Assembly: GCA_902613995.1 (NCBI GenBank)
Contig: CACMJG010000003.1
Span: 134,054-198,053, forward strand
Direction: 5' to 3'
DNA length: 64,000 bases
Source of the DNA: an uncultured Alphaproteobacteria bacterium
GTDB lineage: Bacteria; Pseudomonadota; Alphaproteobacteria; Methylaequorales; Methylaequoraceae
Position numbers and translations under genes: made by a program. This document shows positions 2,202 through 19,302 of the stretch, piece after piece. Position 1 is the stretch's first letter, and each line of letters starts with the position of its first letter. The notes below the pieces were generated by a model, which was given only the letters and a program-made list of their open reading frames with translations, searched no databases and was not told the origin of the DNA.

Positions 2202-3659
2202 TTACTTTAATTTGAGAATGAGAAATCTTGAAAATTCACCTTCAAATACTTGTAAAAGTAATGAATCGGCATCTTTTTTAATAAAATCATCAAATATTTT
2301 CTTAGCTTGAGAAGGTTCTTGAATTTCTTTTTGAGCAATTTGGGAAATAACATTGCCAACATTTAGTCCGGCTTTAGCGGCAAATGAATCTCTTTTGACT
2401 GCGGTAATAACGACACCTTTAACAGATTCTGAAATATTATATTTAGATCTAGTATTTTTGTTAAGGCCAAGAAGTCTCAATCCAATATCATCTATCTCGA
2501 TTTCGTCGCTAACAATTTCCTTATTATCCGAGGGTTTCTCATTAGCTGCTGCGTTAAATTTTTCTAGGTCTCCAAGCTTAACTGTAAACGATCTTTTCTT
2601 TTTATCTCTCCAAACATTTACCTTAGCTTTACTTTCAACAGCAGATTCGGCAACAGTTCTTTGAAGCGATTTGACATCTTTGATTTTTTTTCCATTGAAT
2701 TCTAAAATTACATCTCCAGACTTTAGGCCACCTTTTTCAGCTGGTTCACCAGGGTTTACCATTGAGATTAACACCCCGTCTTCATTTTTAAGTCCAAGAC
2801 TTTTTGCTATTTCAGGAGTTAGTTCTTGTATTCTTACACCAAGCCACCCCCTTTGGGTTTTTCCAAACTTTCTAAGTTGTTCAATGATTGGTTTTGCAAG
2901 GTTTGCAGGGATTGAGAAACCAATGCCAACACTTCCACCAGTGGGCGAAAAAATAGCTGTGTTTATTCCCAAAACTTCACCCTCTAAATTAAAGAGTGGA
3001 CCTCCCGAGTTACCTCTATTTATGGAAGCGTCTGTTTGTATAAAACTATCGTAGGGACCAGCATTAATATCTCTGTTAAAAGCTGAAATTATCCCGGATG
3101 TAACAGTGCCGCCAAGACCAAAAGGATTTCCAATTGCAAAAACCGAATGTCCAACCCTCGCTTTGTCTGAATTAGCAAACTTTAGGTAAGGTAAGGAGCC
3201 TTTTGGTTCTACCTTAAGAAGTGCAATATCGGTAAGCTTATCAGTTCCAACTAATGTAGCTTCTAACTCTGTATCATCCTGAAACTTAACTTTTATTTGA
3301 TTTGATTGTTCAATAACGTGGTTATTTGTAACAATATATCCAGTAGGGTCAATTACAAAGCCTGAACCTAAAGCTTGAGGACGTTCACTTTCTTGTTGAT
3401 TGGGCTGTTGGGGTTGAGGACCGAAAGGAAAACCAGGCGGGAAGTTTTTAAAAAAATCTCTAAATTGAGGAGGTATACCTTCTAGAGGATTTTGGTTGCT
3501 ATTCGTTTCTTGAGGTTTTTGAACCGTAAAAACATTTACCACACTTGGGGATTTGCTTTCAACTAAGTCAGCAAAATTATCAGATAGCGGATGGCTTTCC
3601 ACGTTAAAAAAGCAGGAAAGAAAATAAAGGATAGTGAAAGTCGAGAAAATTTTAACCAT
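2202..3659 (-). CDS. degP: periplasmic serine endoprotease, DegP/HtrA family (trypsin domain plus two PDZ domains)
   Basis: 485 aa with a signal peptide. Contains TNNHV, DIALLK and the catalytic GNSGGPL motif. The C-terminal part has PDZ-like repeats. Confidence 0.9.
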   Translation of the reverse strand: MVKIFSTFTILYFLSCFFNVESHPLSDNFADLVESKSPSVVNVFTVQKPQETNSNQNPLEGIPPQFRDFFKNFPPGFPFGPQPQQPNQQESERPQALGSGFVIDPTGYIVTNNHVIEQSNQIKVKFQDDTELEATLVGTDKLTDIALLKVEPKGSLPYLKFANSDKARVGHSVFAIGNPFGLGGTVTSGIISAFNRDINAGPYDSFIQTDASINRGNSGGPLFNLEGEVLGINTAIFSPTGGSVGIGFSIPANLAKPIIEQLRKFGKTQRGWLGVRIQELTPEIAKSLGLKNEDGVLISMVNPGEPAEKGGLKSGDVILEFNGKKIKDVKSLQRTVAESAVESKAKVNVWRDKKKRSFTVKLGDLEKFNAAANEKPSDNKEIVSDEIEIDDIGLRLLGLNKNTRSKYNISESVKGVVITAVKRDSFAAKAGLNVGNVISQIAQKEIQEPSQAKKIFDDFIKKDADSLLLQVFEGEFSRFLILKLK

Positions 3660-3667
3660 TTAATTAT

Positions 3668-4537
3668 CTATCTTGCTTTACCTTTGGAGCTGTTGAAAAA
3701 TTCAAGGAATTCACTGTCTGGCGATAATATCATTGTGGTCCCGTCCTCACCTAATACATTTCCATAAGCTTGCATTGATCTATAAAAGGAATAGAAGTCT
3801 GAATCTTGTTCAAACGCATCTGCATATATGTCGATAGCTTTAGATTCGCCTTCACCCCTCAGAATTTCGGATTTTCTGGTTGCTTCTGCAAGAATTACGG
3901 TTTTTTCTTTGTCAGCTTCTGCCCTAATTTTCTGAGCAACTTCAGATCCTTTCGCTCTAAACTCTTTTGCTTCTCTTACCCTTTCACTGATCATTCTTTC
4001 GTAGATTGCTTGACTGTTCGCTTCTGGTAAATCTGCCCTTCTAATTCTAACATCGACGATCTCAATCCCAAAACGAGATGCTTCATTATTGACTTCAACT
4101 TTAATATTTTCCATTATATTCCCTCGTTCTTTGGATAAAAGTTCGTCTAGTGTTACACGACCTACGACCCTTCTAAGTGATGAAATAACATTCGAGTTCA
4201 GTCTATTTCTTACACTGCTCTCATTTCCGACTGTTTTGTAAAATTCTAATGGATCAGTTATTTTAAATCTAGTAAATGAGTCAATTAGCATTCTTTTTTT
4301 ATCAACTGCTATAACCTCTTCAACAGGCAAGTCATATTCTAGTATTCTTCTGTCATACTTTATTACATTTTGAATAAGAGGAAGTTTAAAGTGAAGTCCT
4401 GAAGATTGAACAACTCTCTTTGGTTCACCGAATTGAAGAACCAGACCTTGCTCTTTTTCATTCATTGTAAATAGAGCGTTTAGTCCAACGAAAGCTAATG
4501 CTATTAAAATTATATATAAAAAACTAGTTTTGCTCAT
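3668..4537 (-). CDS. hflC: protease modulator HflC (SPFH/band 7 family)
   Basis: 289 aa with an N-terminal TM segment and an SPFH domain. It overlaps the hflK stop, as in the conserved hflKC pair. Confidence 0.9.
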   Translation of the reverse strand: MSKTSFLYIILIALAFVGLNALFTMNEKEQGLVLQFGEPKRVVQSSGLHFKLPLIQNVIKYDRRILEYDLPVEEVIAVDKKRMLIDSFTRFKITDPLEFYKTVGNESSVRNRLNSNVISSLRRVVGRVTLDELLSKERGNIMENIKVEVNNEASRFGIEIVDVRIRRADLPEANSQAIYERMISERVREAKEFRAKGSEVAQKIRAEADKEKTVILAEATRKSEILRGEGESKAIDIYADAFEQDSDFYSFYRSMQAYGNVLGEDGTTMILSPDSEFLEFFNSSKGKAR

Positions 4538-5636
4538 TGTTTGAATTGGAATTATTATTTATTTTTTTTTTTAGTTCAGGGAGAGGTAAGTATGGCACAA
4601 CACCGCTTCCAGCGTTATTATCCACAATAACTTTATCTATTCTCCCTAGTGTTTTTTCAAGAGTTTCTAAATAAATTCTTTCCCTAGTAACATCCTTTGA
4701 GGTTTTATAAGAGTTGTAAACTGAGAGAAATCTTTGCGCTTCACCTTCTGCTTTTGCCACAACTTCTTTTTTATATGCTTCAGCTTCTTGAATTGTTCTT
4801 TCTGCTTCACCTCTTGCTTTTGGAATTATGTCGTTTCTGTAAGCTTCAGCCTCATTTCTTAATCTTTGTTCATCAGTTTTTGCTCTTTGAACATCCCTGA
4901 ACGATTCGATTACTAACTCGGGAGGATCAGCTTTTTGAAGTTGAACCTGAGTAACTAAAACTCCTGATTGATAATAATCTAAAACCGCTTGTACACTATT
5001 TTTTACATCCTCTTCAACAATAGACTTACCTTCAGATAAAATGGGATCAATTGGTGTTTGCCCTATTTTCTCTCTCATAACACTTTCGCCAATGCTTTTT
5101 ATGGTAATCTCTGGGTTTCTAACGTTAAATAAGAAATCTTTTGCATTATTAATAATCCAGAAGATGGTAAAATTTAAGTCTACTATGTTTTCATCACCAG
5201 TTAGCATTAAAGCTTCTTCCGGGGTCTGTCTCGTTTGAGGAGTTTGAGAAAATTGAGATTGCGATGTTCTAAATCCCACTTCTATTCTGTTAACTTTCGT
5301 AACCTTGGGTTTGAATACTGACTCTATAGGAAATGGGAGATGATAATGCAAACCAGGCTCTGTCGTTCTGACATATTCACCAAACCTAGTTACAACTCCC
5401 TGTTCATCTGTACCGACTCTGTAAAAACCACTTAAGGTCCAAATAAAAAGAAGTATAACAAGAACAAGACCTAAACTAGTTGGATTATTCTTAGGAAACA
5501 TATTTTTAAGTTTGTCCTGAAAAGATTTTAGGTAATCATCGCCATAGCTATCTCCACTTCCGTTTGAGCTACTTTTTTTATTTTCTCTGGGTTTTTTCCC
5601 CCAAGGACTGTTGTTATCGTTTGATGACCAAGACAT
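4524..5636 (-). CDS. hflK: protease modulator HflK (SPFH/band 7 family)
   Basis: 370 aa. Starts with the SPWG motif typical of HflK, followed by a TM segment, an SPFH domain and a coiled-coil tail. Confidence 0.9.
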   Translation of the reverse strand: MSWSSNDNNSPWGKKPRENKKSSSNGSGDSYGDDYLKSFQDKLKNMFPKNNPTSLGLVLVILLFIWTLSGFYRVGTDEQGVVTRFGEYVRTTEPGLHYHLPFPIESVFKPKVTKVNRIEVGFRTSQSQFSQTPQTRQTPEEALMLTGDENIVDLNFTIFWIINNAKDFLFNVRNPEITIKSIGESVMREKIGQTPIDPILSEGKSIVEEDVKNSVQAVLDYYQSGVLVTQVQLQKADPPELVIESFRDVQRAKTDEQRLRNEAEAYRNDIIPKARGEAERTIQEAEAYKKEVVAKAEGEAQRFLSVYNSYKTSKDVTRERIYLETLEKTLGRIDKVIVDNNAGSGVVPYLPLPELKKKINNNSNSNNEQN

Positions 5637-5734
5637 TTTTTTTTTTATTGTTAACTTTTATATAAGAAATGTTTTTAGCATGCAAAGAATAATTTTCTAA
5701 TTTAAATTTTTATTTTTTAATTTAAAATTGTGAC

Positions 5735-6511
5735 ATGATAAAAAATTTTGTGGTTGTTGGTTCAGGCAAAGGTGGGGTTGGTAAATCTACTGTTGCTGTA
5801 AATCTAGCAATTGCGCTTGCAAATTTTGAAAAGCTAAAAGTTGGTCTCCTTGATGCAGATATATATGGTCCATCTATTCATAAAATGCTTGGAATTACTG
5901 ACAAACCTACTGCCTCTAAAACTAAGAAAATGCTCCCCTATGAAAAATTTTTGATTAAAGCAATGTCAATTGGCAACATGGTTCCAGAGGATTCAGCTAT
6001 TGTTTGGAGAGGTGCAATGGCTTCAAGTGCGATTAAACAACTTTTAAATGATGTTGAGTGGGGAGAATTAGATTTTTTAATTATAGACCTTCCTCCAGGT
6101 ACTGGTGATATTCAATTGTCACTTTGCCAAACTTTAAAAATTAGTGGTGCTGTAATTGTATCTACACCCCAAGAAATTTCACTCCTAGATGTTAGAAAAG
6201 CAATCAATATGTTTAAAAAAGTGAATGTGCCTATTCTGGGTACTATACAAAATATGAGTTTTATAGAACTTGATAAGAAGAAAAGTTATCTTTTTGGAAA
6301 AGATGGAGTTATACAAGAATCAAAAAAACAAAGACTTAATTTCTTAGCTGAAATACCAATACTTCACGAAATTCCGGAATCCGGTGATGCTGGTGTTCCC
6401 TTAACATCTAAGAAAAATTCTAGCGTAAATGAAATTTTTAAAAAAATTGCCGACAAATTGGTAAAGTCAATAGCTGACAATACTAACTCAGAAATTAAGA
6501 TTAACAATTAA
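5735..6511 (+). CDS. apbC: Fe-S cluster carrier ATPase, Mrp/ApbC/NBP35 family
   Basis: 258 aa. Deviant Walker [12 protein letters not shown], then DADIYGPS and [10 protein letters not shown]. Confidence 0.85.
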
Positions 6512-7427
6512 ATATTTTATTTATAGTCTCTAATTCTCTTTTCGAAATATTTTTTGGAATACTTTTTCTTTTCTTGATCAATGACTTTATGTATTCGATC
6601 CCATGCGAGGACATCGTAAGAGAATTCAATCTGTTGCTAACAAATGCCTCATAAGTAAGAGGAACCCACTTTTTTAAAATTTCCATCATAACTTCTGCAT
6701 ATACTCTAATCTCGTACTGGGCATGTGGATCGAATCTTAGAGATAAAAAATGCATAAAATTATGAAGATCAATCTTCCAGTACCATTGAGTATAGGAATT
6801 GAGAGGAAGTGTCATTCGCGATAACTCTCTTGCTAATCCTTTTTTTGAATCATCAATCATTCTTCCAGATTCATCCTCATTTAAAAGTTTACTGTAATTC
6901 TCAAATCCTATTCTAGAGTTATCTCTTATAATTTTTGAATAACTTTTAATTTCGGCACTGCTTAAGTCACCAGATCTTCCTTGATTATTTGATTTTGATT
7001 GAGGTTTAAGATTCTCGTTTTTAGGAATGTAGAATTCTTTATCTAAAATAGAATATCTTGCAGAATACTCATTTACGTTCGCAGTTCTATGTCTTATCCA
7101 CTGTCTTGCAACAAAAATTGGAAGTTTAACGTGAAATTTTATTTCATTCATTTCAAAAGGTGTTGAATGTCTATGACTTATTAAATAATTAATTAAATTT
7201 TTATCTTGATTTAATTTCTTTGTTCCTTTTCCATAAGACACTCTAGCTGCTTGAACGATTGAAGTATCGTTACCCATATAATCTATAACTCTTACAAAAC
7301 CATGGTCTAAAATTTTAAAAGATTTATAAAGAATCTTCTCTAATGCTTTAACTGTAACTCTTTTAGTGGAAAAATCATTATTTCTCAATTTTTCTATTTC
7401 AGTTTTTATTTGATTCTTTTTCTTCAT
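6501..7427 (-). CDS. thyX: flavin-dependent thymidylate synthase
   Basis: 308 aa. ThyX signature [14 protein letters not shown] (RHR...S.RY). Confidence 0.9.
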
Positions 7428-7517
7428 AGAACTTTAATTTTTCATAATAACTTATTCTTACACTAAAACAATTTATAGGTTTAATTTTTTTTATCATTCC
7501 TTATTATAAAAGTGCTG

Positions 7518-7810
7518 AATTTCAGCTATGGCAATAAACGTTTGATTTTGAGCCGATGCGGACCCGGGGGCGGTACCCGGCACCTCCACCATAAAAATAT
7601 TAAAGGGGGGTGAAATAGGATCGACGTGCGTGTGAATAGTCAAAAACTTTGCCCGGAATGGTACCAACGTTATCGGACTAAAATTATAAATGCCAATGAT
7701 AATGAAATGGCACTCGCTGCTTAATTAATTTAAGTAAGCGCGGTTATGGACACCGGGCAACAGAAGTCTCATCGGCAAGGGCGGGCAATTGTTCGCCCTT
7801 GTTTGTTTTA
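7518..7810 (+). ncRNA. ssrA: circularly permuted (two-piece) tmRNA gene
   Basis: The acceptor piece ends ...GGCACCTCCACCA at 7591. The coding piece starts GGGGGTGAAATAGGATCGACG at about 7606. The two ends form a 7-bp acceptor stem with a G3-U wobble. The tag ORF GCC AAT GAT AAT GAA ATG GCA CTC GCT GCT TAA (7692-7724) encodes ANDNEMALAA. GCCGATG (7552-7558) can pair with CATCGGC (about 7770-7776). The 5' boundary is approximate. Confidence 0.85.
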
Positions 7811-7838
7811 AGGAGACTCACAAAGGGTTTCAGAGGTT
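7750..7838 (+). repeat. direct repeat copy 1: the 3' end of ssrA plus about 28 nt downstream (attL-like)
   Basis: The 50-nt core CAGAAGTCTCATCGGCAAGGGCGGGCAATTGTTCGCCCTTGTTTGTTTTA (7761-7810) is identical to 8635-8684. The flanks are similar but diverged. Confidence 0.85.
7776..7809 (+). terminator. Rho-independent terminator of ssrA
   Basis: AAGGGCG ... CGCCCTT hairpin followed by GTTTGTTTT. Confidence 0.7.
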
Positions 7839-7986
7839 TGACTCAACAGAAAATAAAACAGAATAAAACGAGTTAAGTACAATACACTTTTGTTTGTTCT
7901 TATTTTCTTAAAGATTTATTTTAATTTTAAAACATTGGTTCAAGCATTAAAAATTAGGTTGTTTGCTTGAACCAATATAATTTATT

Positions 7987-8148
7987 TTATTCTTTTTTTT
8001 CTTCAGTTGTCTCTTCTTCTTTTTCTTCAGAAGTCTCTTCAGTTTTTTCTTCTACAACTTCTTTTTTTTCTCCGTGTCCGTCCGCTCTTGTGGATTCAGA
8101 AGAAATTAAAAATGCCAAAGATAAAAATAAAAAGTAGAAATTTTTCAT
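7987..8148 (-). CDS. small secreted acidic protein, 53 aa (hypothetical)
   Basis: Below the ORF-track length cutoff. A GGAG sits 7 nt upstream of the ATG. Translation: MKNFYFLFLSLAFLISSESTRADGHGEKKEVVEEKTEETSEEKEEETTEEKKE. This is a signal-peptide-like N-terminus with a Glu/Lys/Thr tail. A 13-bp perfect-stem hairpin (7934-7976) lies just downstream. Confidence 0.5.
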   Translation of the reverse strand: MKNFYFLFLSLAFLISSESTRADGHGEKKEVVEEKTEETSEEKEEETTEEKKE

Positions 8149-8623
8149 GTATATCTCCAAAAAAAGGTTAAAACATAATACTAATAAATCTAAAGTATTT
8201 ATTGAAATTTATATTCTTTATGTGTGTTATAATTCCAACTAATAATGGTCATAGTTAATAATGAGAACAGACATTTTTTCGTTTGTAATTTAAAAATTAT
8301 GAAGTTAAGAGTGTTAGGCGCCTAAACCTGTCGCAAAAGGAAGGAATAATTTTAGACGCCCATTAATATATAGTAATTAATATATCTCTGTATAAATTTT
8401 TTATGTTTATACCTATTATTACCTCTGATTATAGATTTATCTTAACTAACTCTAATGACCTTTATTGAAAAATTATTTGTAATCATTGTAATTTAGTCTG
8501 CAGTGATTTTTTCATTAAAAATAGAAATTATAAAATTAGTCCGTGCAGAAAAAACACTCATTTGCAATACACTTTGCAATACACTTTTTGAGAAAGTCCC
8601 ACATATAATGGGTCTTAGACTAA

Positions 8624-8712
8624 ACACCGAGTCACAGAAGTCTCATCGGCAAGGGCGGGCAATTGTTCGCCCTTGTTTGTTTTAGGCACACTCACAAAGG
8701 GTTTTAGATGTT
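8624..8712 (+). repeat. direct repeat copy 2: an orphan copy of the ssrA 3' end (attR-like)
   Basis: See copy 1. The upstream part, ACACCGAGTCA versus ACACCGGGCAA, loses the complementarity to GCCCGG that copy 1 has inside the tmRNA. Confidence 0.85.
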
Positions 8713-8721
8713 ATGTTCTTC

Positions 8722-9066
8722 TTAAATACCAAACCAAGAAAAAATAAAATTCCCAGTTACCATTAATGTATAAAAAAATACAATACAATAAAGTAAACCG
8801 AAGAAAATGATATAAATCCCTCCAAGTAAAACTCGAACTAGAGAGGACAGTGAACTTCCAAGAAATTCAAGATCTAAACGCATTAGAAATGGATTTACTT
8901 TGGATTTAGTTTTTTTATTCAACCAATAAACTGGATAAGTACATATCCATAAAATTGGTATATACATAAATATATATAGTGCTGTGATTCCTAATAAATG
9001 CATATAATTAAATAAATTGATTGTAACAAAAAAGTAGTCCGTACAGAAGTCATGCAAAAAAAACAA
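8722..9066 (-). CDS. hypothetical small membrane protein
   Basis: 114 aa with several hydrophobic segments and a TTG start in the track. I recognise no family. Confidence 0.45.
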   Translation of the reverse strand: MFFLHDFCTDYFFVTINLFNYMHLLGITALYIFMYIPILWICTYPVYWLNKKTKSKVNPFLMRLDLEFLGSSLSSLVRVLLGGIYIIFFGLLYCIVFFYTLMVTGNFIFSWFGI

Positions 9067-9167
9067 TTATTAGTAAAGCCAAATTTGTACTCTTTAAGAA
9101 ATTTATTTTTAATTGATACTTATAAAATTTTTAGTAAACTGAATGTGAAAAAAATGAGGAGGTTCTC

Positions 9168-17007: not shown

Positions 17008-19302
17008 TCAAAACTTTGCTGCAGCTTTGAAGTATGCAGTAAGTGGTGCACCTCTTCGAGCTCCATTCGGATGTCTTGAAGCAATGTACTCTAAGTCAGT
17101 TGCATTGTTTACTCCGGCTGTAAACCTGTAATTTTTCATAAAGTCATAACCTGCATAGAAATTTAATAGGAATGCATCATCAATTTTTCCGTTTCTTGCG
17201 TCTGGCATACCATTAAATATTTCGGATTCACTTTCGTCTGCAGTACCAAATGACTCGGAGTGATAAGTCATATTAACTCCAAAATCAAGGTCATTATACT
17301 CATAATCAGCACCGAATGATAGACGATGGTCTGGAACGTATGGCACATTAGAGCCATCTCTACCGCCAGCAAAAGCTGATTCAGAATCCTCTGAATTAGC
17401 TGCACCATCTAAATTAGCGTTTGTAAATGTGTAATTAGCAAAGAATGAAATATCTCCTCCAAAAGGTTTAAAGTTCTCTGGAGCGTATGTTGAAGAGAGT
17501 TCAAATCCTTTTGAAACAACGTTACCTGCATTATCAGGAGCTGAGTCAGCATTGCTATTATCAATAACGATTAAATCTTTAAAGTCTGTATGAAAACCTG
17601 TCCAAGATATGAAGAATGTTGGTGAAGAATATCTTATACCGATCTCTTTAGCGATACTTGTTTCTTTTTCTACAGGACTACCATCATCTCTTGCAGAACC
17701 TGGTCCAGGCAAATTAAATCCTTTATAAACTCCGCCAAACCACTGCCAATTATCGTCATGATTATAAACTAATCCGCCACCAGGCGCAAAAGCATACATA
17801 GTTTCAGACATATTATTCGTTGTTCCAGCAATAGCAGCTTTATTTCTATAATGGTAGTCAACATATTCAAACCTACCACCAAATGAAACAACAAAATTAT
17901 TAATGGTTGCTGATTCTTCGATATAACCGATATGACCTCTAGCCTTTTCATGTCTATCATCTTTGAAAGTCACACCACCACCAGTTGCAGTTAAACCTCC
18001 TCCAATCGCTTGAGTGAATGAATGACGTTGTTGGTCTCTGTTAATATAATCATAATGGTATCCATACCCAACTTTTAGATTATGTTTGATATTTGTACCG
18101 AAATAATCTGTGTTAAAGTTAAAGTCTGTTTCATTATTAAGAACGTAAGAACCATATTGCCTATCATTGTTTACATATCTAATCGTACCTGCTGCTAGTC
18201 CCTTTACAATATTTAATGAAGCAGCACTTCCAGCTTTTGACATAATCTGTGTAAGAGAATGACCATTAGCATCTGCTAGCTTGAACCAGTCTCTTGTATA
18301 ACGATTATAACCTAGAGTTAAGTTATTTGTAATGTTTGAAGTTAATTCAGCTCTAAGTTTAGCATAATAGGTTTGCTGTTCAGTGTTCATTTCGTCAAGT
18401 TGAAATGCAACGTAGGTTTGGTCAGGATTAACACCAAAGTCTGCTGTGGTTAACCCAGCATACCCTTCATTATAATTCATATCGTTATATGATGCTTTTA
18501 CTTCTAAGGTAATATTCCTAGTTGTTGGGAGTTGCCATAACAACTTAGCCATAGGAGCAATGTGATTGATTCCACCAAGCTCATCACTATCATAACCTTT
18601 TCTGTGTTGTGAACTTGTTGGAGGGTTAATATTGAATTCCTTTCCATTACCATCACTATTACGATAATACATTTCACCCAATAAAGCTAAAGCGCCATAA
18701 CGTCCTGAGATACCATAGTTAAAGTAATCATGAGTAATAACGTCATTACCTGAACCATAGGATACACTACCATAATACCTTTCACCAAAATCAATGGGTG
18801 TTGTTACAAAGTTCATTGCACCACCTGTGGAATGTGGACCATATCTATACTGACTGGTGCCTTTTAGAATCTCTACAGCATGCATTTTACCTGTAATAGG
18901 AAAGTAATAAGCGTCTGGTGCAGAATAAGGAGCTGGCATGATATTAATTTCATCCTCCATAATATTTACCTGAGCAGATCTCAAAGTATTAACACCTCTC
19001 ATACTAATATTAGGAAATATCCCCAAGCCATCTTCTTCTCTTGAGTAAACACCAGTTGTGTTTCTTAAAATTTCATTAATGTTGTTAAAGTTGTACTTTC
19101 TAATTTCCTTTGGCCCAATATAATCACCAGATCCAGGTAGTTCGAATACCTGCTCTGGTGATTCAAAGATATTTACATCAGGTGCAACATAAGTGGTGTC
19201 CTGTGCAAAAGAATTACTGGCAATAGCAACACCAGTTATGAATGTTAACCTTGACATCCAATGGGTATATTGAGGTACCACCCTTGATTTTTTAACTATC
19301 AT
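17008..19302 (-). CDS. TonB-dependent outer-membrane receptor
   Basis: 764 aa. Signal peptide, a plug region (NINEILRNTTGVY...GVNTLR), a long beta-barrel and a C-terminal aromatic residue (...AAAKF). Confidence 0.9.
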   Translation of the reverse strand: MIVKKSRVVPQYTHWMSRLTFITGVAIASNSFAQDTTYVAPDVNIFESPEQVFELPGSGDYIGPKEIRKYNFNNINEILRNTTGVYSREEDGLGIFPNISMRGVNTLRSAQVNIMEDEINIMPAPYSAPDAYYFPITGKMHAVEILKGTSQYRYGPHSTGGAMNFVTTPIDFGERYYGSVSYGSGNDVITHDYFNYGISGRYGALALLGEMYYRNSDGNGKEFNINPPTSSQHRKGYDSDELGGINHIAPMAKLLWQLPTTRNITLEVKASYNDMNYNEGYAGLTTADFGVNPDQTYVAFQLDEMNTEQQTYYAKLRAELTSNITNNLTLGYNRYTRDWFKLADANGHSLTQIMSKAGSAASLNIVKGLAAGTIRYVNNDRQYGSYVLNNETDFNFNTDYFGTNIKHNLKVGYGYHYDYINRDQQRHSFTQAIGGGLTATGGGVTFKDDRHEKARGHIGYIEESATINNFVVSFGGRFEYVDYHYRNKAAIAGTTNNMSETMYAFAPGGGLVYNHDDNWQWFGGVYKGFNLPGPGSARDDGSPVEKETSIAKEIGIRYSSPTFFISWTGFHTDFKDLIVIDNSNADSAPDNAGNVVSKGFELSSTYAPENFKPFGGDISFFANYTFTNANLDGAANSEDSESAFAGGRDGSNVPYVPDHRLSFGADYEYNDLDFGVNMTYHSESFGTADESESEIFNGMPDARNGKIDDAFLLNFYAGYDFMKNYRFTAGVNNATDLEYIASRHPNGARRGAPLTAYFKAAAKF

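Follow-up and report, generated by a model that had tools for sequence, protein, structure and literature searches.

A probable miniature, integrase-less derivative of ssrA-targeting integrative elements and its relatives in tandem cassette arrays of streamlined marine Alphaproteobacteria

The window analysed here is a 64,000-nt stretch of DNA from an uncultured member of the Methylaequoraceae (Alphaproteobacteria, Methylaequorales; assembly GCA_902613995.1, contig CACMJG010000003.1, positions 134,054 to 198,053 of the forward strand), whose genome (G000) comprises 1.36 Mb and is 89% complete. Directly behind its ssrA gene, which encodes transfer-messenger RNA (tmRNA), lies a 0.87-kb unit bounded by a duplicated ssrA 3' end. 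This unit is very likely a miniature derivative, lacking an integrase, of integrative elements of about 9-10 kb that use the ssrA 3' end for insertion. Streamlined ocean bacteria of this type are usually described as almost free of mobile elements, and the route by which they exchange flexible genes is debated. The locus suggests a concrete, testable exchange mechanism, which would combine one fixed tmRNA docking site, a very rare integrase family and a large pool of tiny cassettes.

The original prediction, made from the letters of the window alone, described a direct repeat of about 89 nt at this place. The repeat is present at 7750-7838 and 8624-8712, with 81 of 89 positions identical and both copies on the plus strand in the orientation of ssrA; its longest identical run measures 51 nt (7760-7810) rather than the 50 nt proposed. 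A search of the whole 1.36-Mb genome returned these two copies only (E 4e-41 and 3e-30). The ssrA gene is a permuted (two-piece) alpha-type gene, recognised by ARAGORN as tmRNA* at 7499-7815 and by the Rfam model alpha_tmRNA at 7476-7774 (206.9 bits). The repeat was said to cover the last helix strand and the terminator of ssrA, which is supported by the CATCGGC it contains, able to pair with GCCGATG at 7552-7558, and by an intrinsic terminator within copy 1, a second version of which lies in copy 2. The locus therefore shows what the Islander definition of a tDNA island describes, namely an insert bounded by an intact tmRNA gene and by a displaced 3' fragment that has the orientation of the gene. 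The space between the copies is 785 bp (7839-8623), not about 815 bp, and holds the one predicted open reading frame (ORF) for a secreted acidic protein of 53 aa on the minus strand. As had been stated, an integrase gene is absent between the copies, and none lies anywhere near. All coordinates are collected in Table 1.

Relatives of this junction were surveyed in 42 species genomes, a set that is identical for the order and for the family, and 18 GTDB stretches and 44 marine metagenome contigs were added for the delimitation of cassettes. Alignment of all copies with their flanks resolves a module of about 300 nt in which a core is flanked by a P arm on the left and a P' arm on the right. In the P arm, two GTCGTGCAGAA units and a spacer precede a pair of 9-nt arm motifs (NNANNCA[C/G]T) set at a 12-nt phase, after which come TTTTGAGAA, a small inverted repeat and GGTCTTAGACC. 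The core reads CACC-GAGAC-ACAGAA-GTCTC-ATCGG and is followed by the terminator and about 30 nt, and the P' arm comprises about 45 conserved nt, three motif copies at an 11-nt phase and TTTGTTTGTTC. At the sequence level, this layout, with arm-type sites on both sides and inverted repeats around a putative 6-nt overlap, is that of a lambda-like attP attachment site. GGGCAAC is found in all 24 ssrA-proximal copies at the place where 82 of the 94 other copies have GAGACAC; strand exchange must thus lie to the right of this position. The 6 nt ACAGAA between the 5-bp inverted repeats (window 7760-7765) are the likely overlap region and site of strand exchange. The arm motif exists in at least 12 variants, including CAATACACT, GCACACACT, TGATACACT and GCACGCAGT. 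The same variant occurs at both ends of a cassette in 15 of 30 cases (2.95 expected; 15 reached in none of 20,000 shuffles), and across a core in only 1 of 10, as is predicted for a split attP.

Two other accounts of these copies are exceedingly improbable, namely that XerC/XerD act on a dif-like site, as in an integrative mobile element exploiting Xer (IMEX), or that the internal copies are small RNA genes borrowing the ssrA terminator. Xer proteins are the only recombinases common to the genomes of the order. However, the dif candidate of G000 at C15:4343 (CAGTCGCATAATATATATTATGTTAAAT) is unlike the core, and mimicry of Xer/dif was rejected because of this difference. Every copy does end in a terminator, as the small RNA account would have it, but an Rfam scan of the module at E <= 1 gave nothing meaningful (best E 0.23), and promoter-like sites at internal copies do not exceed the shuffle level. 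RNAalifold yielded no consensus structure for the module. The dif candidate itself (C15:4343-4370) has 5 mismatches to the dif of E. coli.

The module is linked to an integrase on elements of about 9-10 kb that appear autonomous. In two metagenomic sequences from different samples (L173 and L174), an integrase gene is followed directly by the P arm, the core and the P' arm, with no ssrA body and with two copies of (G)CAATACACT in the P arm and three in the P' arm. Two full-size copies are integrated at ssrA, in genome G041 and in L177, and L173 is collinear with both when rotated to start at the core. The G041 copy, to which a resolvase search of the genomes led, runs from ssrA through a core and a P' arm with three CAATACACT motifs and about 7.4 kb of element genes to an integrase ORF of 371 aa that is cut by the contig end. 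L177, part of a 497-kb contig, shows thyX-ssrA, then a 9.8-kb element and then a restriction-modification cassette; its cores are 9816 bp apart, and the second of them follows the integrase stop after about 107 nt. The G041 attL has the same terminator variant as the L173 attP, which is consistent with a crossover left of the terminator. Integrase genes inside the element were found only in G041, L177 and L173-L176.

The window unit corresponds closely to this integrase-linked site. Its P arm and left core agree with the L173 attP at 103 of 107 positions, and its right core and P' arm at 115 of 130 aligned nt. The cassette has one GTCGTGCAGAA unit fewer than that attP and a single P' motif instead of three. 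The 11-nt motif that had been likened to arm-type sites contains CAATACACT, whose three occurrences match the integrase-adjacent attP in both sequence and position. The proposal that an element integrated into the ssrA 3' end and brought a replacement copy is supported, with the two repeats as attL and attR of this site.

Every full-size element seen also carries a PF00239 serine recombinase gene (196-233 aa), a family found in 3 of the 42 genomes. This resolvase-type enzyme, rather than the tyrosine integrase, might perform the integration, paralleling the ssrA islands of Dehalococcoides. Such a role is very unlikely: the resolvase gene lies about 2-3 kb from attP, whereas the integrase gene abuts and overlaps the P arm, and phased arm sites with a 6-nt spacer between inverted repeats typify tyrosine integrases. 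Moreover, the usual role of small resolvases is multimer resolution, which also argues against this one as the integrase.

Tandem full-size elements were observed on two long-read reef-metagenome contigs, L175 (30.8 kb) and L176 (16.5 kb), each with two or three copies spaced 8.0-9.2 kb apart and each copy with an integrase and a resolvase. The copies are only 85-95% alike and are therefore not simple concatemers; they may form either chromosomal arrays or extrachromosomal multimers, and no ssrA body lies in the available part of these contigs.

The integrase family is very rare. Relatives of the G041 protein form 15 clusters at E <= 1e-10 among 5.8 billion proteins, with full-length members of 396-408 aa, and precomputed PF00589 matches are present on 4 of these clusters. 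Within the 42 species genomes, a near-full gene occurs only in G041 and none in the other 41. The residues R226, K260/K263, R341-H342 and Y373 are invariant. An AlphaFold model places four strands and a helix in the N-terminal part (predicted local distance difference test, pLDDT, 71-86). Foldseek searches with the model returned only tyrosine recombinases and the related type IB topoisomerases; at E <= 0.03, the PDB matches consist entirely of tyrosine recombinases, among them Cre, Tn1549 Int, XerA and lambda Int, with the longest alignment, 391 columns, to full-length lambda Int. Based on the catalytic residues, the modelled fold and the Pfam-matched clusters, the protein is predicted to be a divergent tyrosine recombinase of the heterobivalent type with a separate N-terminal domain. 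The sequence is nearly invariant from about residue 74 onwards, and the first 70 residues are hypervariable. The integrases P0001 and G041 share an N-terminus and are both paired with CAATACACT; these two cases are suggestive of an N-terminal type that tracks the arm motif, and the N-terminal domain would presumably bind that motif.

Other candidate integrases were considered and set aside. The remaining integrases of the order are located on small contigs or at tRNA-Ser, tRNA-Thr or tRNA-Leu genes, and neither ssrA cores nor arm sequences lie near them. An integrase-like ORF of G000 (C1:145804-147069, 421 aa) lies beside tRNA-Leu(gag) and is unrelated to the ssrA locus. It stands between housekeeping genes at a site conserved in G005, G008, G012 and G017, and may be an inactive or domesticated integrase, since Arg-I and HxxR appear by eye to be lost.

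Some sister cassettes without an integrase retain traces of a probable origin by deletion. The integrase ends in ...FPDYYGKK*, and its final codons overlap the P arm. These C-terminal codons, TTCCCAGATTAC, stand at the expected distance ahead of 16 of the 86 internal cores, and C-terminal pseudogene stubs of 24-87 codons, some with stop codons, persist in the arrays of G007, G014, G016, G022, G049 and G057. The window's own cassette retains the arms only. It is flanked by attL and attR of the autonomous family and contains no recombination genes, which is the arrangement described for cis-mobilisable elements (CIMEs).

The module was found in 35 of the 42 species genomes, with two or more matches in 24 and up to seven copies. 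All copies stand in direct orientation behind ssrA and share one sharp left edge. A total of 52 complete cassettes of 155-5345 bp could be delimited, with up to six in one array, and recombinase genes are absent from every array cassette. Their cargo is diverse and mostly singleton, with restriction-modification and nuclease genes predominating: Dcm with a restriction enzyme, a 1619-aa Type ISP enzyme, an EcoRI methylase with GmrSD-HNH, BglII, SRA-HNH, Tsp45I with a methylase, NgoFVII and PD-(D/E)XK nucleases. FkbM methyltransferases, DoxX, PhoD and small secreted proteins are also present.

A comparison of relatives and metagenomic contigs had been suggested in order to see whether the content between the repeats varies, with identical content in every relative pointing to an old fixed duplication unconnected with mobility. 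Such a fixed scar is very improbable. A near-identical single-amplified genome (99.98% over 5.6 kb) does have the identical locus, and G000 has no integrase, as a scar would allow. However, genomes of the same genus whose ssrA genes are 96-98% identical carry cassettes that vary in number, order and content, and the window's cargo shifts rank within arrays. This cargo recurs at more than 20 loci (78-98% identity) at array ranks 1-4 and with differing neighbours, which, judged from the assembled arrays, suggests that it moves as a unit. A public collection lists the exact 53-aa product in 519 blocks; ten of its contexts were inspected, and they contain 1-5 cores each and no integrase. The mature part of the peptide (TRADGHGEKKE...) is rich in Glu and Lys, and about 370 nt upstream of its gene are conserved among cassette copies.

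An alternative route for this variation is RecA-dependent homologous recombination alone, in which modules of ~240 nt would serve as anchors after DNA uptake and no site-specific step would operate at present. This explanation is consistent with the absence of an integrase from 41 of the 42 species genomes, with the 80-95% similarity of the modules and with the half of cassettes whose arm motifs are mismatched, which requires crossovers inside arms or cargo. Because of these unmatched arms, homologous recombination probably adds to the spread of cassettes, but it does not account for the architecture. The shared sharp left edge with ssrA-type versus element-type bases just left of ACAGAA, the ordered and retained x2 and x3 phased sites, the integrase gene beside an intact attP and the existence of integrated full-size copies all stand against it, and as the sole process it is unlikely.

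Integration and subsequent deletion of ssrA-targeting elements therefore remains the preferred explanation, and the following sequence of events is proposed. A full-size element would insert into the permuted ssrA, at the 3' end of its coding piece. The integrase gene of such an element lies directly beside an attP of about 300 bp. This attP has two GTCGTGCAGAA units and two phased 9-nt motifs in the P arm and three phased motif copies in the P' arm, and behind its core GAGAC-ACAGAA-GTCTC comes an extra copy of the ssrA 3' end and terminator. Strand exchange within ACAGAA (window 7760-7765) would give the product ssrA-core-P' ... P-core, in which ssrA is now ended by the element-borne 3' end and terminator, and repeated integrations would stack units behind ssrA. 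Internal deletions would then remove the integrase and backbone and spare both arms, leaving cassettes that need a matching integrase in trans. The window cassette would be one of these, with the CAATACACT arm type, a 53-aa secreted acidic peptide as cargo and partly eroded arms, and an integrase acting in trans would be required for it to move. Among the explanations offered in the original prediction, a small non-autonomous integrative cassette mobilised in trans fits best, given attL and attR sites whose arms match an integrase-linked attP. A decayed island remnant captures part of the picture, in that two of the three P' motifs and one GTCGTGCAGAA unit are missing, but describes the unit less well.

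Several observations weigh against this explanation. The case for mobility comes from assembled sequences, among which no excised circle or empty site was seen, and G000, at 89% completeness, contains no integrase of the ssrA-element family. With one of three P' motifs and one of two GTCGTGCAGAA units retained, the window cassette may now be unable to recombine. Half of the cassettes have differing motifs at their two ends, as do the arms of L177, and motif matching is therefore either not obligatory or the arms have been reshuffled. L173 has no terminal overlap, so that its attP-type junction may represent a free circle or a head-to-tail tandem junction. The integrase model is of moderate quality (pLDDT 64, predicted template modelling score 0.41), the Pfam scores for P0001 fall below threshold, and a sequence-profile search of the PDB with the integrase gave no match.

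A broader interpretation can be put forward tentatively, as a possibility more doubtful than the deletion origin. The hypervariable integrase N-terminus and the 12 or more arm variants might act as matched "address codes", and the cassettes might form a population-wide, integron-like pool of defence genes that is activated when a rare autonomous element of the same code enters a cell. If this were the case, many element lineages could use the ssrA end side by side without excising one another. Many of the cassettes with docking arms carry restriction-modification or nuclease genes. The natural series of arm-site and N-terminal variants on one core would also be useful for studying how the specificity of heterobivalent integrases evolves.

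The system is of a known kind, a tyrosine-integrase tmRNA island with tandem accretion and CIME-like members (PMC4383910, PMC3146451, PMC5704250). Islander catalogues tyrosine-integrase islands at tRNA and tmRNA genes, including tandem arrays, and its filter requires an integrase in each island (PMC4383910). Like those islands, the present elements leave an intact target with displaced direct 3' fragments, restore the gene end, have an attP of about 250-300 bp and accumulate in tandem at one site. Unlike them, they insert at the coding-piece 3' end of a permuted ssrA, a target that is not tRNA-like, and most units measure 0.15-5 kb and have no integrase. Because an integrase is required in every island, the Islander filter would miss the present cassettes; the window unit and the array cassettes contain none. 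CIMEs and the Dehalococcoides ssrA islands that lack an integration module are att-flanked, deletion-derived and arranged in tandem with autonomous relatives (PMC3146451; PMC5704250). The present units resemble both in being att-flanked, free of recombination genes and in tandem with autonomous relatives at ssrA. They differ from these systems in their far smaller size, their streamlined marine alphaproteobacterial host and the use of a tyrosine integrase with arm sites instead of the CcrB-like serine recombinase DsiB; the only serine recombinase on the elements is the resolvase of 196-233 aa.

With lambda Int and its attP, as well as L5 and Tn916/Tn1549, the system shares phased arm repeats (x2 and x3) and core inverted repeats around a 6-nt spacer, and its predicted N-terminal domain, a beta-sheet plus a helix, resembles that of lambda Int. 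Sequence identity, in contrast, is only 13-18%, and a single shared core is combined with at least 12 arm-motif variants. Neither Xis nor IHF partners were identified for the present elements. As in integrons, small and mostly single-gene cassettes form an array at an anchored site and draw on an open pool. Unlike integrons, there is no resident IntI, no attC hairpins and no common promoter, the genes lie in both orientations, and the att sites are double-stranded and lambda-type; the array is flanked by thyX and housekeeping genes, and its junctions are att modules instead of attC.

The system also groups with marine additive flexible genomic islands, tycheposons and virion-encapsidated integrative mobile element (VEIME) satellites, as far as these are described in the available text of the respective reports (10.1101/2020.12.28.424599, PMC10872708, PMC11796062, PMC9618062). 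According to those portions, the shared traits are streamlined hosts, tRNA or tmRNA sites with partial gene repeats, few autonomous elements and many remnants. VEIMEs and phage satellites are defined by packaging in virions as concatemers and by satellite-type replication or interference genes. Repeats are reported in the same portions, but not the arm code, the mini-cassette design or the present integrase family. A phage database search with the module gave no match, nor did IMG/VR scans with core, terminator and arm patterns. PHROGs was searched with the cargo proteins of the larger integrase-less cassettes only, without matches, and for the backbone proteins of the full-size elements the search covered Pfam alone. 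The system is distinct in its non-tRNA-like permuted-ssrA target, its extremely miniaturised, integron-like array, its very rare divergent integrase and the diversification of arm motifs on a shared core. No description of a permuted-ssrA target, mini-cassette arrays, this integrase family or arm-motif diversification was found in the accessible parts of the literature searched.

Table 1. Features of the ssrA locus in the window (positions are those of the 64,000-nt stretch)
Feature	Position	Strand	Basis
ssrA, permuted alpha-type tmRNA, tag ANDNEMALAA	7476..7815	+	Rfam, ARAGORN
Repeat copy 1 (attL core)	7750..7838	+	repeat, module alignment
Copy 1: ssrA-type left half-site GGGCA	7755-7759	+	module alignment
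Copy 1: putative overlap ACAGAA	7760-7765	+	module alignment
Copy 1: GTCTC	7766-7770	+	module alignment
Copy 1: helix strand CATCGGC	7770-7776	+	
Copy 1: terminator, plus T-run	7774-7803	+	
P' arm of cassette 1	7839..7899	+	nhmmer P'-arm profile match 7835-7932, E 1.9e-15
P' arm: CAATACACT (1 copy; full attP has 3)	7880-7888		
P' arm: TTTGTTTGTTC	7889-7899		
Cargo: 53-aa secreted acidic peptide gene (7987-8148) and about 370 nt of conserved upstream DNA	7900..8535	-	
P arm of cassette 1	8536..8623	+	P-arm profile match, E 9e-21
P arm: GTCCGTGCAGAA (1 of 2 units retained)	8539-8550		
P arm: CAATACACT, twice	8565-8573 and 8577-8585		
P arm: TTTTGAGAAA	8586-8595		
P arm: GGTCTTAGAC	8611-8620		
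Repeat copy 2 (attR core)	8624..8718	+	repeat, module alignment
Copy 2: element-type half-site GAGTC (consensus GAGAC)	8629-8633	+	
Copy 2: ACAGAA	8634-8639	+	
Copy 2: GTCTC	8640-8644	+	
Copy 2: terminator	8648-8677	+	
Decayed second cassette (putative)	8719..9094	-	93-aa membrane protein gene 8722-9003 (minus) and P-arm stump
P-arm stump, GTCCGTACAGAAGTCATGCA	9016-9074		P-arm profile match, E 3.5e-7

The locus is embedded between the housekeeping genes degP-hflC-hflK-mrp-thyX on the left and genes for a Cys-rich peptide, a Fur-family regulator and an ATP-binding cassette (ABC) system on the right. A recombination hot spot seeding the block to its right had also been envisaged, and this applies up to about 9094. 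The 93-aa membrane protein gene there is present in some relatives and absent from others (missing in G004, G002 and G010). Exact-protein look-ups of ThyX and of this 93-aa protein brought up nothing beyond the same strain. In G004, the segment 8719-9094 is missing and the last core directly adjoins the position that corresponds to window 9095; together with the P-arm stump, this identifies the gene, on comparative grounds, as an older cassette that became fixed once its distal core was lost. The gene order of the Zur/ABC block past 9095 is conserved across the genus and does not fit the hot-spot proposal. This conserved block right of ssrA in the streamlined 1.36-Mb genome also contains a TonB-dependent receptor gene (17008-19302).

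One larger cassette of 5.25 kb was seen repeatedly in several TARA samples (L146/L147, reverse-complemented, 3506-8865; also L068, L152 and L153). It has matched GCACGCAGT arms and nine genes, among them those for a PD-(D/E)XK nuclease, a 390-400-aa protein, a T5orf172-like protein of 288 aa and two small proteins that look ribbon-helix-helix-like by eye. The 390-400-aa protein was considered as a hidden integrase and rejected, as it has no motifs and no Pfam match and is neighboured by the nuclease and the T5orf172-like protein. The cassette may represent an undescribed defence system.

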